A stretch of DNA of 64,000 nucleotides from Macrostomum lignano (lineage: Eukaryota): positions 1 to 64,000 of the forward strand of contig NIVC01000157.1 of the NCBI GenBank assembly GCA_002269645.1, written 5' to 3'. The notes under the pieces were generated by a model. That model worked only from the letters and a program-made list of their open reading frames with translations. It made no database searches and was not told where the DNA came from. The translations under genes and the position numbers were made by a program. Below are positions 54,552-64,000 of this stretch, piece after piece (the first letter of the stretch is position 1; every line of letters starts with the position of its first letter).

Positions 54552-54705
54552 GGTGACTACGTAATGTGCAGATAAGTGTTGATTTTCAGATGTTTTGACG
54601 CAAAAAACGCAAATTATACTACTATCTGAAAAATGAAGTAAGTAGTATACAAAAACGCTATCCTAAGCGTGATTCAATATGTAGTTGTAATAATCCATGT
54701 GATCA

Positions 54706-54870
54706 TATTAATTCCATGTACATTAATCCCTAAATATCTCAAATTGTACATTAATTCCATGTACATTAATCCCTAAATATCTCAAATTGTACATTAATTC
54801 CATGTACATTAATCCCTATCTATCTCAAATTGTACATTAATTCCATGTACATTAATCCCTATCCCAAATT
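54706..54870 (+). repeat. About 43-bp subterminal tandem repeat (ATTAATTCCATGTACATTAATCCCTAAATATCTCAAATTGTAC)x3-4 in the left inverted-repeat region
   Basis: Direct reading of the sequence. Confidence 0.85.
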
Positions 54871-55209
54871 GTCTATCCCCAATTCTATATGTACATGTGC
54901 ATTAATCTACAGTGTCATCCCCAGCGCGCGCGCACCAAAATTACATGTACAATACTACATGTACAATCTCATCCAAATGAGTCAACACCCAAGTTTTACA
55001 AACCACGTTATATACATATTCCTATTTATATGTCAATTATTCAAAACCTACATGTAGCTGATTACACTACTACCTTTAGTAGAGTTACAAATCAAGATTC
55101 TATTGAAAAAGACTGTATTCATATAGTTTCACATTGGAAAAGCGTATATTTTCATTTCAACAATTGAAAAAGAGAGCAAAAACAGTAAGAGACAACAGCA
55201 AGTTGAGAC

Positions 55210-58789: not shown

Positions 58790-61700
58790 ATGGCATCAAA
58801 ACGCCCAGCCGCTGAAGCCGCCATTTCAGCCTTGTGGGGGCAGGCTGGCCCCTCCAGGCAGCAACCACAGCATCAGCCTCTGCCCGCAAAGAGGGGACGA
58901 CAGCTAGGTGAGTCTTGCAAGTCTGTGTAAAAATTTCTTTTTCATCTTTATCTTTTACGAAACTCGGGATTATTGAATAATATAGGGCTGTTCTCTGTAA
59001 AAACTGTTTTTTTCATCTTTGGCATTCATTTGGCTTCGCAAACTCAAAATAAGGCTTATTGAAATAATAGGAGGCCCCGCTGTAAAACTGCTTTTCACCG
59101 GCAGTGATAAAATCAACCCCGATTTTTGGGCTCAGCATGATGATGTAATCACCGCGGTGGCAGGTATTCTAGCGGCGCAGTGATAAAATCAACCCCTGAT
59201 TTCGGGCATGATGATGTAATCACCGCTGCAATTGACAGTAGGGGTTTTGGCAGCAATAAAACTTGGCTGCTACAGTGAGGGTTATTAATCAGACAGTTTT
59301 AAAATCCAAAAGCGGCCGCGCGGTATTGTTGCTAGGTGTCAAGGAGGCACAATGGAGACACGTGCTGATAGGGGTTTTACAATGTCTGCTGCAGCAGGAT
59401 CAGTGTTATCAGGGTCATCAATCAAACATTTTTGACAGCCTAAAATTCGAAGCGGGGGTCAATCAACCCCACATTTCTTTTGTTGCTACGTGTCGGAACG
59501 TGTCGAGTTGGGGTTTTTACAACTCGCCGATTTTCGTTGCTTGGGGTGGGGCGATAAAATTGCTGCTGCTGCAGGCAATCAATCAAAACTTTTTGACAGT
59601 TGTAAAATTCCAAGCGGTCAGAATTTTAGTCACCATGCGCATTTTTATTGCAGATTTGGCTCAATTTCAACCCCCGCCCCAGCCCGACACTGTCGAAGGT
59701 GATGGTAAGGAGTTGATTTCATGAGTCATACACCCACCGCCTCTCGCAATTCTAATTTCAAAACCCTCCATTTTTCAGGCTTCATTGCGCGTCTTGGCGG
59801 GGCGAAAGCCCTGCCAAAATTTAAGGCAAAAGGCTACGAATATGTAGTGACATTCACCGCAGCAGCAGATACTACCGATATTCGTTCCACGTTTGAGGGC
59901 ATTATTTCTGTGCTCTGCTCAGATTTGCAAGCCGACGATTTCATCTCGGCCAAACTAACGGCCGACAACATGCTGCTCACGGTTAATGTACCGCCAGTCC
60001 GCCGCAGCCGCTTCACTGCAGAGCTGATATTTAAACATATCAACAAGGTTCTGCAGTCGGACTCCAGTGTCTTGGGCAACAACTTTAAATTGTTTTTGCT
60101 CAAGGCCTGGGTCCCGCGGGGCGGCTGCGGCAGCCTTTCGGGGTTGATGTGCTCCCCCAACTGCTCGCAGTCCTGAACGCCCAGTCACCCGGCCGGGATT
60201 TCGGCGCCCGCGTGTACAGTGCCGAGGAGGGCAATACGTGCGTGTACGCCCTACCCGGCCGCGAAGTGCTGAATCTGCACCTAATTGGCGAGCACTTTAA
60301 CGCTGTTTGCAAAGTGCCGCCATTTTTCGGGGCCCGCCGCTATTGCGACCGCTGCCAGCAGCCGTACGACTGCGTGTCTGGAGGGCACAAATGCGCCAAC
60401 ACCTGCCCTCAATGCAAAGTGCCCGGCTCCAATTGCAAGAGCCTGCGGTGCGACTACAAGCGCTGCGCTGATTGTGGCCTCAAGTGCTACAATCCGCAGT
60501 GTTTTGAGAACCACCGCCGAAAGAACCGGGCCGGCAGGTCTCGCTGCGACTCTGTCCGAGTCTGCCCCAAATGCGGATATTTGGAGGAGATGAAAGTTGG
60601 GCAAAGGGAGCCGGAGCACAAGTGCGGCCACATCAAATGCCCACTGTGTAAACAGTATGATGAGGCCGGCTCGCATTTGTGCTTCGTCAAGGCTCCCAAA
60701 GTGAAAGCATCGACTATGCCGTACGTGTTTTACGATACGGAAACATACACGGACGAGGAGAAGCAGCATCACGTGCATCTGGTGACTGCCGTCACGTGCT
60801 GCGAGACCTGCTCCGGCCGGGCGTTTCCGCGCGAGACTTGCCGCCTCTGCAATGGCCTGCATAGCGCCGCCAATTGTCTGACTGGCTGCGATCTGGGGGA
60901 GGAATTCTCCAATTGCGTCAGCCACTCAGACTGCGCCTGCCAAATGGCCGATTTTGTGTCTGTGGGCCCGGCCTCGCTGAATGCGTTTTTCGCCTGGCTG
61001 AGCACCACATTCCGAGGCGGCGCCATTGTTGTAGCGCACAATGCATCAGGCTACGATTCGTTCCTACTGCTTGGCGCTCTACTCAACGGCCTGGCCAAGA
61101 AGCGGCCACAAGTACTGTTCCAGGGCAGCCGGCTAATGAGCATGACGGTTGACAAATTGGTATTCAAAGATTCGTTAAATTTTATACCAATCCCGCTTGC
61201 GCAATTCCCAAAAGCGCTGGGGCTCGCTGACACAAAGCTGGCCAAGGGTACGTTTCCCCACGAGTTTAACAAGCCGGCTAATTGGAACTACGTGGGCTCC
61301 TACCCGGCTATTGAATATTATGGCGGCAAAGCAAACAAGGACTATGACTCAATCTGTGCTTGGCTAGCCTCGCGACAGGGCGAGTTGTTCAACTTTAATC
61401 GGGAATATCTCGATTATTGTTTGAGCGACACAGTCCTGCTTCGCGAGGGCTGTATCAAGTACAGGGCAATAATTGGAGACATTTGCGACGGCCTGGAACC
61501 ATTTGTACAGGCCAATACGATTGCCAGTTTGGCAATGGCCGTTTTCACCACCCGGTTTATGGAGCCCAACTCGGTCGGCGTGATTGCCCGGCAGGCCGAC
61601 CAGCAGTCATTTAAGGCGCGCAAGTGGCTGACTTATTTGAATGCCACCGAATTTGGCGGGCGGCTGCGCACCTGCGACTCGACTGGCGGCGAGGCTGTCA

Positions 61701-63552
61701 TTCTCGGCCGCAAGGTGGACGGCTTCGATGAGGCCAGCAACACTGTTTTGCAGTTTCATGGCTGTTTCTACCATGGCTGCGAGCAGTGTATGCCTGATCA
61801 GGATGTCGTCCACCCACTCAAACGGCAGCCTCTGAGCCATATCCGCCACGAGACTGAGTGGTTCACTCGCGAGTTGGAGCGGCACAATTACAGTGTTCGA
61901 GTCATTTGGGAGCACGAATACGACACTGTATTGGCATCGCATGCCGACTTTATCGCCGCAACTGCCCATCTGCGCGCTCCACTCAAGATGGAAGATGCGC
62001 TCTACGGCGGCCGCGTAGAGTGCTTTATCCCGCATGCTGTGGCCAGCGAGACTGAGACTCTCAAATATCGGGATGTGGTGAGTAGTGATACTACTAATAT
62101 AGTAGAATATTTTGCAAAAAAATACAGTTTATGAAAAAATAATGCTTTATTTCAACTGGCAGGTCTCTCTGTACCCGACGGTGCAGTCGAAAGACCCGTA
62201 CCCGATTGGCCACCCGGTGCAACATCCGACGCCGCAAGTGCTAGATTCTGACGCGCTGGCTAGTTACTTTGGTATTGCCAAGGTGACTGTGTTGCCGCCG
62301 TCAAATTTGCACATTCCGCTGCTGCCGTACAGAGTGCAAAAGAAGCTCTTTTTTGGGCTTTGCCGCACCTGTATGGAGCAGCAGTGCGGCGAGTGCTGCG
62401 ACCACTCAGACGAGCAGCGGGCACTGACTGGTACCTGGGCCACGCCAGAGCTGCGGAAGGCCTTCCAGTTGGGCTACCGGCTGCAGGTGGTGCACGCGCT
62501 GGCCTACTGGACAGAGCAGCGGACGGGCCTGTTCGGTGACTATGTCAGCACCTTCCTCAAGCTGAAGGCCGAATCGAGCGGCTCCCCTGGCATGTCGGAT
62601 GAGGACAAGGCCGCCTACATTGCCGATTTCTTTGCAAAGGAGGGCGTCACGCTGGACAAGGTCGAGCCCAACCCAGGACTTCGCTTTGTAGCGAAAATCT
62701 TTTTGAATTCGTAAGTATTCATAAATTTTGTTTTTTAAATGATTTTCTTCTACTATCAGTAGCACTTCCTTTCACAACACACAGGCTCTGGGGCAAATTT
62801 TGTCAGCGTGACGACCTGACATCGACCGAAATAGTATCCAGCTACGAGGACTGGCTCGCCCGGCTGACCGACCCCAACCTCAAAGTCAAGGCCTGCGAAC
62901 CGGTTGGCAGCGAGTTTATGCTGCTAGAGTACCGGCACCGCTATTTTAATCAGCGGCCGTTCCGGTACTCCAACGTACCGATCGGGGTCTTTACGACCAC
63001 GCAGGCCCGGCTGCGCCTGTACGAGGCATTGGAGGGGCTCGGCGAACGGGCCATTTACTGCGGCACTGACTCGTAAGTATTGCATTGGGAAAATTCTTTT
63101 AGAATTGATTACATGTAAATTAGCAAGTTGGCAATTATCTCGTTTTCTCTCCCCCACACAGGGTCGTTTACCGGCATTCCGAGGGCCAATGGGAGCCGCC
63201 CCATGGCACGAGCCTCGGAATGTGGACCGATGAGGTGCCCGCAGGCAGCCGGATGACCGACTTTGTAAGTGGGGGGCCCAAGCTCTACACTTACATTGTC
63301 GAGGATGCGGCCGGTGTCCGGAGTCAGGTCCTGAAGTGCAAGGGCATCCGCCTGACTCCAGAGATTCGGGAGCGCAGCGATGAATTGCGCAGTGCCCTAC
63401 TACACGGCGGCTCCCTGCAGCTGCCGCAGCTTCAGTTTAGGCGCGACAAGGCGTCTTGTACCATACACACTGTTAGTATGGACAAGACGTTTCAGCGCGT
63501 CCTGACGAAGCGCGTGTACGGGGCCTGCAGCAGGCCTTATGGTTATAAATAA
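58790..63552 (+). CDS. polB: Protein-primed family-B DNA polymerase (Polinton type), about 1210 aa, 5 exons, one frameshift near 60125-60148
   Basis: Exons 58790-58907, 59779-62077, 62163-62710, 62785-63072 and 63162-63552 with GTGAGT/GTAAGT donors and YAG acceptors. Motifs: ExoI FYDTET, ExoII AHNASGYD, FKDS, KGTFPH, ExoIII YCLSD, Vsr-like FHGCFYHGC, YGGRVE, motif A YRDV^VSLYP, motif B KIFLNS^LWGK, motif C YCGTDS^VVY, GPKLY and KCKG. Confidence 0.93.
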
Positions 63553-64000
63553 TGTGGCCCTTGCTTAATAAATATCTTGTTAAATTTGACTGAGTAAAAT
63601 CTATTTATTGTTGTACATATTTTGCATGTTAAATTAATGAAGAGTTACATACTACTATACAAATGTACATAAAGCATTTTTGTATTGTATGCAGCGAAAT
63701 TGCCAATGTAAAAATCTATTGTACATATTTTGCGTGTCAAACTTGTTTAAAATCATTTATGAAAAGAAAATTAATGAAAAACAATTTAAAATTTTCTGTA
63801 TATTCTATTTGCTGGTAATGCTGTACATAAATTATTTCCTGTAATATGCTACTGATTTAATGTAAATATATCTTCATTGTAAATACTTATACATGATGTA
63901 CGCTACACGGTTAGTTGACTCATTTGGTAGTAGATGAGATTAGTAATTCTCGCCTCTGCGTACATGTAGTATTGTACATGTAATTTTGGTGCGCGCGCGC

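Follow-up and report, generated by a model that had tools for sequence, protein, structure and literature searches.

At the right-hand edge of the window, a 64,000-nucleotide stretch (positions 1 to 64,000) of Macrostomum lignano contig NIVC01000157.1, lies a 9,859-bp polymerase-bearing element of a family that we call A, extending from 54556 to contig position 64414. Its left end reads 5'-ACTACGTA and its right end reads ...TACGTAGT-3'. The element is bounded by terminal inverted repeats (TIRs) of 409 bp on the left (54556..54964, plus strand, with internal 43-bp tandem repeats at 54707-54861) and 455 bp on the right, both beginning with the letters ACTACG; of the right-hand repeat, the innermost 41 bp lie inside the window (63960..64000, minus strand) and the rest continues to 64414. 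A 6-bp target-site duplication (TSD), ATGGTG, is present at 54550..54555 (plus strand) and again at contig 64415-64420. The outermost 31 nt (54556..54586, plus strand), ACTAC...TTTT, form a block that is variable at nt 6-27, is drawn from an allele pool common to a second family (I1, below), and likely serves as origin and integrase attachment site. Three A ends folded over their terminal 110 nt gave hairpins no stronger than those of shuffled sequences (z -0.5 to -1.7). The element is inserted in a degraded member of the same family, a nesting that the preliminary description of the locus overlooked: a left-arm piece of the older copy, carrying a dUTPase fragment, lies at 53893..54555 (minus strand; 92% to 55499-56169), the target resumes past 64414, and it is unbroken once the element is removed.

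The preliminary description had proposed an element of about 9.6 kb with AGTAGT at 54641 as its left end, and had expected extension of the contig to about 64.4 kb to reveal a right terminus ACTACT and a 6-bp TSD. The 41-nt inverted match that it reported (54924-54964 with 63960-64000) is present at 100% identity, the TIR-bounded element is real, and extension does uncover a right terminus and a TSD. However, AGTAGT sits 85 nt inside the TIR, with the inverted match and the TSD reaching further out, which rules it out as the left terminus; the expected ACTACT is also wrong, since the right end at 64414 has the sequence given above.

Three minus-strand open reading frames occupy the left arm and a plus-strand pPolB gene the right, both starting from a central region (58341..58789) predicted to be a divergent promoter on the basis of TATATAAAG boxes at 58430 (minus) and 58707 (plus). 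The outermost frame (55210..55668, minus) is open and encodes a 152-aa dUTPase (PF00692, E 1.6e-30) that shows 42-53% identity to dUTPases encoded by a Polinton region of AGTAGT type in the same genome. It is followed by a low-complexity orphan of 219 aa (56214..56873, minus), seen in family A copies only and without a usable match in Pfam or Atlas. The third (57546..58340, minus) encodes a 264-aa protein with an N-terminal PC4 domain (PF02229, E 6.4e-6; E 0.007-0.045 against PC4 chains in the PDB), 45% identical to the PC4 protein of a related family, B; it is a putative single-stranded DNA-binding protein. Between the orphan and the PC4 gene lies a degraded second copy of part of the polymerase gene's 5' region (57125..57420, plus; 77-82% to 59805-60057 and 60188-60295). 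The non-coding arm, which might have concealed an integrase or capsid gene, gave no blastx or tblastx match to Polinton proteins.

The pPolB gene (58790..63552, plus) comprises exons at 58790-58907, 59654-59704, 59779-62077, 62163-62710, 62785-63072 and 63162-63552. PF03175 is matched on two exons (E 5e-15 and 5e-12), and polymerase motifs A, B and C are recognised across introns. Four GT..AG joints appear in three sequencing runs guessed to be RNA and none in one guessed to be DNA, these labels being guesses in that no run with this stretch is recorded as RNA. The joints belong to intron 1 (58908..59653, 746 nt; run X13) and to introns within motif A (62078..62162, 85 nt; X12, X13 and X17, not X5), within motif B (62711..62784, 74 nt; X13 and X17, not X5) and at motif C (63073..63161, 89 nt; X12, X13 and X17, not X5), all on the plus strand. 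Intron 2 (59705..59778, plus, 74 nt, GT..AG) is absent from the displayed joints and is predicted from splice signals and phase. About 320 bp are missing from the third exon at 60133, so the reading frame of the window copy is broken, and catalytic motif C additionally carries a substitution; this damage had escaped the preliminary description. Cysteine and histidine candidates for fused terminal-protein and vOTU domains are found in UniRef models P0001, P0002 and P0007 when read against the available text of PMC11161782, the cysteine region being missing from the window copy.

No integrase or capsid gene lies between the TIRs. The preliminary description had anticipated this, and its assignments of pPolB, PC4 and dUTPase, its gene layout and its inference of introns are likewise borne out. 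It named two findings that would have spoken against it, an inverted match ending just past 64000 with capsid or integrase genes beyond it, or all other copies being ordinary full-length Polintons; no such gene follows the right TIR and no copy is a full Polinton, as integrase, major capsid protein (MCP), ATPase and protease are absent from all 35 two-ended A elements and all 25 B elements. Of the cargo that it had called purely replicative, PC4 and dUTPase occur in just 2 of 14 two-ended polymerase-bearing A copies and are thus accessory. It was right to see a compact pPolB replicon with introns and with neither integrase nor capsid, which depends on integration in trans. The family A polymerase is 27-37% identical to animal relatives, one of them named a very-short-patch-repair nuclease; the search for a close non-host relative found none, the best reaching 37%.

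The missing functions are found on a separate family of about 10.2 kb, I1, which encodes integrase, double-jelly-roll capsid, penton, protease and ATPase, and no polymerase. Together with I2, the corresponding partner of family B, it supplies 10 elements, all of which carry integrase, MCP, ATPase and protease without a polymerase; a further 6 coding I1 elements also lack one. The I1 gene order is integrase, minor capsid, small ORF, major capsid and protease, with an ATPase in addition. The integrase matches PF00665, and the integrases of I1 and I2 form a clade of their own, apart from those of the AGTAGT Polintons of the genome (100/100). A model of the I1 MCP built from 62 sequences (pLDDT 90), replacing a 7-sequence model (pLDDT 49) that was set aside, predicts the double-jelly-roll fold seen in PBCV-1 Vp54 (Foldseek to the PBCV-1 major capsid, E 2e-18). 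The ATPase and protease are 31% and 24% identical to resident Polinton proteins, and the minor capsid is assigned from where it lies and from its resemblance to metagenomic neighbours. A TBP identity for one I1 ORF found no support in Pfam or the PDB. Pfam does not detect the I-type MCP and a PF04665 search gave 0 matches, indicating that family searches are insensitive here. The resident capsid families detected with PF21738 (73 matches), considered as an alternative partner, had no common sequence at 10 sampled loci and AGTAGT ends where visible.

The two halves of each pair are linked by their termini, with 5'-ACTACG in A and I1 and 5'-ACTACT in B and I2. From the tops of the match lists, 83 of 154 A, 56 of 201 B and 37 of 58 I1 ends were read, as well as 5 I2 elements. 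Of 25 distinct 31-mers from I1, four also occur as A variants and none occurs among the B variants; each of the 25 differs from some A end at no more than 4 positions and from every B end at 10 or more. A and I1 ends are inseparable (932/1000 permutations) and A and B ends fully separable (0/1000). One of the 6 I2 end variants is found unchanged at a B end. The likeness of the A and I1 TIRs ends after nt 31, beyond which the TIR bodies are unrelated. Free shuffling of ends is not supported: in 10 A copies end distance follows polymerase distance (rho 0.46, 0/2000 permutations). TSDs of 6 bp flank 33/35 A, 25/25 B, 11/15 I1 and 4/5 I2 elements, some copies being segmental duplicates with the same TSD, and 19/35 A, 22/25 B and 9/10 I elements are 8.3-10.9 kb long. 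Non-coding giant palindromes bear these pair-type ends as well. Variable terminal blocks, giant-palindrome derivatives and polymerase-less derivatives are also found among the AGTAGT-type Polintons of this genome, so these features alone are not diagnostic.

Purifying selection acts on both halves: dN/dS is 0.08-0.11 for the polymerase within A and, between I1 and I2, 0.03 for the MCP and 0.07-0.08 for the integrase. Synonymous sites between the two pairs approach saturation (synonymous difference 0.75 for A-B and 0.65-0.84 for I1-I2). The I1 copies hardly differ from one another (dS 0-0.06) and the A copies are more diverged (0.14-0.28), indicating bursts that were unmatched in time.

The complementary gene sets and identical 31-base ends suggest that A and I1 are halves of one two-part DNA virus; we assign a probability of about 0.72 to the reading of the window element as the broken polymerase segment of a two-part Polinton whose partner is I1. 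We regard as established the gene complementarity, common ends, TSDs, spliced polymerase transcripts, selection and second pair, B with I2, on which this reading draws. In the integrated copies, essential genes are split over separate molecules with matching termini, one of the traits of a multipartite virus, and A and I1 combined make up the eight-gene Maverick core in the available text of PMC8097293, with three of these genes assigned from position alone. We see an even chance that the fuller picture also holds, namely a multipartite dsDNA animal virus with replication and virion/integration modules on separate, separately packaged segments of about 10 kb, one polymerase, one integrase, a split older than the two sister lineages, a recombining 31-nt tag for each pair, and defective palindromes of its own. 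The pPolB made from spliced transcripts, carrying a putative fused terminal-protein domain, would prime at the ACTAC end of any molecule bearing the terminal block and copy both segments by strand displacement, PC4 and dUTPase being optional helpers. The I1 integrase would recognise the block and insert either segment with a 6-bp duplication, and the I1 capsid and ATPase would package molecules of about 9-10.5 kb singly, of which the capsid dN/dS of 0.03 and the clustering of element sizes are no more than indirect signs; I1 would thus integrate, and probably package, both segments. Co-replication would permit sequence exchange between ends and so maintain a single allele pool for each pair, the giant palindromes would be defective passengers, and the window copy could be moved passively only.

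Neither origin suggested in the preliminary description accounts well for these data. A resident full Polinton did not give rise to the element by deletion, because residents end in AGTAGT and use another class of polymerase, one without introns; nor is the element a free-standing linear-plasmid-like family, because a complementary integrase-capsid element without polymerase has its exact termini. A nuclear replicon of linear-plasmid or transpoviron type that is self-sufficient and becomes integrated by chance would explain the purely replicative cargo, the long TIRs and a polymerase that is spliced and under selection, but the precise ends and 6-bp TSDs of 33/35 copies call for a retroviral-type integrase, which I1 provides; we consider this reading extremely improbable and largely refuted by the TSDs. 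It is also quite doubtful that A and I1 are deletion products, acted on in trans, of a monopartite master of about 15-19 kb (A polymerase plus I1 genes) that is rare, collapsed or missing in the assembly. Ordinary Polintons here do yield polymerase-less and palindromic derivatives, and both the genome searches (the best 113 of 159 polymerase and best 114 of 1600 integrase candidates) and the ends read (83/154 A, 37/58 I1) cover a part of the candidates and ends. Yet no master appears among the resulting 118 polymerase and 70 integrase matches: polymerase and I-type integrase matches are nowhere closer than 40 kb, and on the three contigs that hold both the distances are about 45, 168 and 465 kb. 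Among the 24 I1 end pairs the spans range over 7.6-14.3 kb, the two longest being enlarged by an inverted duplication and an insertion and not by a polymerase. Simple deletion would not produce TIR bodies unrelated beyond nt 31, and the same event would be needed twice, in like manner.

An unlikely alternative of another kind is a one-sided satellite, in which A mimics I1 ends and borrows the integrase and perhaps the capsid, and I1 is copied by host enzymes or resident Beta-class polymerases. The confinement of A-I1 sharing to 31 nt and the many Beta-class Polintons resident in the genome agree with this, as do integrase-less Polinton-like viruses in a host genome, for which the available text of PMC11296320 suggests integration in trans. 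Furthermore, I-type capsid genes, distant relatives at 28-38% identity, were located at 80 metagenomic loci, of which 11 have a polymerase on the contig, in all 11 of the Beta/pPolB1 class; a split of one Alpha-type ancestor therefore lacks support, which also weighs on the two-part reading. Against a satellite, resident Beta-class elements end in AGTAGT and not ACTAC, the end match is pair-specific twice (A-I1 and B-I2), and I1 and I2 have persisted without a polymerase, under purifying selection, throughout a divergence to near-saturated synonymous sites.

The proposed two-part Polinton resembles several known systems in part. Family A has the TIRs, 6-bp TSD, repeated terminal motif and PF03175 polymerase, albeit broken in the window copy, of Polintons/Mavericks (adintoviruses, Alpha-class pPolB), as these appear in the available portions of PMC8097293, PMC8502044 and 10.1101/2023.08.22.554363. 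The on-element retroviral-type integrase, jelly-roll capsids, ATPase and protease of Polintons are present on 0/35 A elements and reside on I1, whose gene order is that of the second module of vertebrate Mavericks plus the ATPase; the Polinton core is here divided between two separately integrated molecules of about 10 kb. In these same sources, the end motifs listed for Polintons are (AGT)2, (AG)3 or (AC)3A, in contrast to ACTACG/ACTACT, and intact vertebrate Mavericks are without the spliceosomal introns of the A polymerase gene. Bidnaviruses have a Polinton-derived pPolB and two separately packed segments with matching termini, but, according to the passages available, are ssDNA viruses of 6-6.5 kb with a parvovirus-type capsid, no integrase and a polymerase segment that also encodes capsid (PMC4061559, PMC8502044). 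A and I1, known from integrated copies, have a double-jelly-roll capsid, both parts integrated, and replication and virion genes fully apart. Integrase-less Polinton-like viruses (PMC11296320) and linear plasmids and transpovirons (PMC11161782) also carry a partial kit and are thought to be trans-dependent, but the available text of either source describes no reciprocal partner with common ends, whereas the dependence of A and I1 looks mutual and pair-specific. Linear plasmids and transpovirons are maintained without dedicated integration, unlike A with its precise integration and 6-bp TSDs. Polydnaviruses are not known to be pPolB- or Polinton-based or to have a two-way replication/virion division. 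They share with A and I1 a segmented dsDNA genome integrated in that of an animal, but are host-domesticated and have many segments (PMC5680193, available text).

In the tables seen of the same review (PMC5680193), no dsDNA family is listed as multipartite and polydnaviruses are the only segmented dsDNA family. If true, a two-part Polinton would be a case of segmented genomes among the jelly-roll dsDNA viruses, and because both parts can reside in the germline as integrated copies, their meeting by co-infection would be unnecessary, suggesting a way round the main cost of segmentation. Two sister pairs and defective palindromes in one tractable animal make the cheating model of multipartitism, as outlined in the available part of PMC10159356, testable, and the pair-specific 31-nt ends are ready substrates for the biochemistry of Polinton priming and integration. 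Annotation rules that demand a polymerase beside an integrase would overlook such elements. The literature searched, with Repbase, most subscription papers and supplements outside its coverage, contained no two-part Polinton. Three unnamed capsids at 78-80% were found without gene context. Scans of viral contigs returned 0, 0 and 4 loci, and at one of these four an A-type polymerase lies beside an integrase and an ATPase.

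The window element is one copy of family A, Polinton-like elements of ~10 kb with a polymerase and ACTACG ends. The perfect 41-nt inverted match of the preliminary description is present, but the repeat does not stop at the AGTAGT at 54641 that was taken as the left end and reaches 54556. Extension of the contig beyond the window placed the right terminus, as had been anticipated, at position 64414 and confirmed a 6-bp target-site duplication (TSD), ATGGTG, on the two flanks. The element starts 5'-ACTACGTA, measures 9,859 bp and has terminal inverted repeats (TIRs) of 409 and 455 bp. 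The sequence into which it inserted is itself a decayed family A copy, and in the surrounding region of the same contig (C157:50001-92000) family A copies and inverted fragments are nested within one another, among them window 53893-54555 and loci L011, L031 and L032. A remnant of the sister family, B, lies ~45 kb beyond the nest. Two arrays of a 14-bp unit (window 50579-50930 and 52485-53300), inverted relative to each other and ~2 kb apart, are foldback-like and unrelated to the element.

Pfam matches support the genes first recognized by eye: PF03175 in two polymerase exons, PF02229 for PC4 and PF00692 for dUTPase. The best database matches of the polymerase are UniRef proteins of Macrostomum lignano (identity up to 100%), and a 219-aa low-complexity ORF had no usable match in Pfam and other searches. 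The polymerase gene is indeed intron-bearing: three runs from two studies, guessed to be RNA, yielded contigs that lack four GT..AG introns, and none of these four joints occurs in a run guessed to be DNA, in both cases among the 15 of 29 joints listed. A fifth intron is predicted from splice signals and phase. Motifs A, B and C are each split by an intron, and the family B polymerase has introns at the same three motif places. The window gene is broken: relative to all nine other long copies mapped it lacks ~320 bp at 60133, so that the frame is lost, and its motif C carries a substitution.

The 27-nt TIR core occurs 154 times in the 764 Mb searched, and reading 83 of these family A ends yielded 35 two-ended elements, a partial, non-random sample in which a single insertion is in some cases represented by more than one copy. 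A 6-bp TSD flanks 33 of the 35. Polymerase sequence is present in 14, two of which also carry PC4 and dUTPase; four contain only dUTPase or PC4 pieces, and 17 are non-coding, mostly giant palindromes. Integrase, capsid, ATPase and protease occur in none (0/35), in agreement with the initial reading of the window copy, and comparison of gene content revealed no ordinary full-length Polinton among them. A polymerase search of the genome (113 of 159 candidates scored) gave 118 matches that fall into two groups by identity, about 81-100% for family A and about 58-70% for family B. Family B elements are compact (~9 kb), have ACTACTA ends and encode PC4 and polymerase; all 25 have a TSD and none has a virion gene. 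The family A palindromes (among them L012, L013, L014, L019 and L021) are ~9 kb long and share a central hairpin of 113 nt (L013:4856-4968) that is imperfect and GC-rich (fold z -10). Clusters of older PC4 copies, 75-84% identical to the window PC4, occur at C1753:124278-212046 and C1176:223567-237787 in the vicinity of single family A ends.

An end-motif scan identified, on contig C175, an element whose end is of the A type but whose TIR continues with other sequence. This element encodes an rve integrase, capsid, protease, ATPase and smaller ORFs. A genome search with its integrase, in which 114 of 1600 candidates were scored, gave 70 close matches that fall into two subfamilies, I1 (mostly 91-100% identity) and I2 (about 72-85%). 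Ten elements read over their whole length, five of each subfamily (9.6-11.9 kb), all carry the four virion and integration genes, and polymerase, PC4 and dUTPase are found in 0/10. Six more coding I1 elements, the two longest included, have no polymerase, and comparison of the two match lists by eye shows every polymerase match to be more than 40 kb from any I-type integrase match. The I1 capsid model (pLDDT 90) matches PBCV-1 Vp54 (E 2e-18). An I1 ORF (L154:2066-2614) that we take to resemble a divergent TATA-binding protein is conserved in I2 (dN/dS 0.08), with no support from Pfam or PDB. Capsids P0121, P0122 and P0123, encoded on ENA and Logan contigs 1.8-3.8 kb long, are 78-80% identical to that of I1 and possibly represent a third pair, or else relatives from different hosts. 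Non-coding classes of their own also accompany the B ends and the I1 ends, and the B non-coding arm does not match the A arm. The I element gene order, integrase, minor capsid, small ORF, major capsid and protease, is that described for the second module of vertebrate Mavericks in PMC8097293; A and I1 together thus restore the eight-gene core, three small genes of which are assigned by position alone.

All four groups start with a 31-nt block, ACTAC...TTTT, that is free of indels and variable at nt 6-27. Of 25 I1 variants, four coincide exactly with A variants; each of the 25 differs from its nearest A variant at no more than 4 positions and from every B end at 10 or more. One of six I2 variants is identical to a B end. 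Permutation did not separate A from I1 ends (932 of 1000) or B from I2 ends (808 of 1000), and separated A from B and I1 from I2 (0 of 1000). The I1 ends thus come from the A pool and the I2 ends from the B pool. The window element's own end equals an I1 end at 30/31 positions, and beyond nt 31 A and I1 have no significant common sequence. Within the variable segment (window 54561-54582), a fixed-length mosaic of alleles in all four groups, every informative site pair at least 13 nt apart fails the four-gamete test (23/23, 28/28). Most elements have the same variant at both ends (32/35 A, 18/25 B). Similar terminal variation occurs in AGTAGT Polintons.

The gene contents are complementary, the ends are shared within a pair and specific to it, both segments have integrase-type TSDs, and splicing and selection are shown; these results form the basis of a model in which each pair is a two-part Polinton. 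The polymerase of family A would copy any molecule bearing the terminal block, and the I1 integrase and capsids would insert and package such molecules; end sequences would be exchanged through co-replication, and the non-coding palindromes would be defective genomes riding along. We assign this mechanism as a whole a probability of about 0.7. In Polintons, pPolB includes a vOTU protease as well as a terminal-protein domain (PMC11161782), and repeated end motifs permit jumping-back initiation (PMC8097293). Purifying selection is evident in the polymerase within A (dN/dS 0.08-0.11) and between I1 and I2 in capsid (0.03), ATPase (0.04-0.06) and integrase (0.07-0.08). Synonymous difference is 0.75 for A-B and 0.65-0.84 for I1-I2, and in a midpoint-rooted tree, subject to possible long-branch artifacts, the integrases of I1 and I2 group together on a long branch, separate from those of AGTAGT Polintons and of 23 metagenomic relatives. 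Because both pairs are without the same modules, it is simplest to suppose that the division into two segments predates the divergence of the pairs. The multi-copy forms differ widely in content, yet their lengths cluster at 8.3-10.9 kb; selection on virion genes and a constrained size have been used as signs of particles (PMC8097293), an argument that extends, indirectly, to these elements.

The proposal that the window element is a deletion derivative of a resident Polinton is not borne out: the ordinary Polintons of this genome have AGTAGT ends, and their polymerases are long and intronless and do not match the window polymerase in blastp; they are therefore not the parents of family A. Among 80 metagenomic loci with a distant I-type capsid (only 28-38% identical), 11 have a polymerase on the contig, and 11/11 are of the Beta class, that of the AGTAGT Polintons, rather than the Alpha class of family A. 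Although Polintons are known to have exchanged polymerases (10.1101/2023.08.22.554363), this result makes a later association of A with I1 as plausible as the split of one ancestor. Also weighing against the two-part model are the partial linkage of ends to the element body (rho 0.46), the much younger age of I1 copies than of A copies, and the occurrence of variable ends, palindromes and polymerase loss in ordinary Polintons as well.

The window element works like half of a Polinton, and family A differs from Polintons in its end motif, its intron-bearing polymerase and its lack of integrase and virion genes. The nearest precedent is the bidnaviruses, whose pPolB segments have matching termini; unlike A and I1, they are ssDNA, non-integrating and carry capsid and polymerase together (PMC4061559 and PMC8502044). 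The tables of PMC5680193 list no multipartite dsDNA family, and a two-part Polinton was not found in the literature searched, which did not extend to Repbase, most subscription papers or any supplements.

Other Polinton-like families accompany these elements in the genome. An AGTAGT-ended family (L119-L126, on C291, C494, C738 and C592) carries integrase and virion genes, and in the copies sampled its Beta-class polymerase is either reduced to fragments or missing; C592 and C2301 are giant inverted duplications. A further family on C67 (L079-L080) has ORFs for integrase, capsid and ATPase; its AGTAGT end bears a terminal hairpin of ~100 nt, and an ORF that is presumably a D5-like helicase lies nearby.
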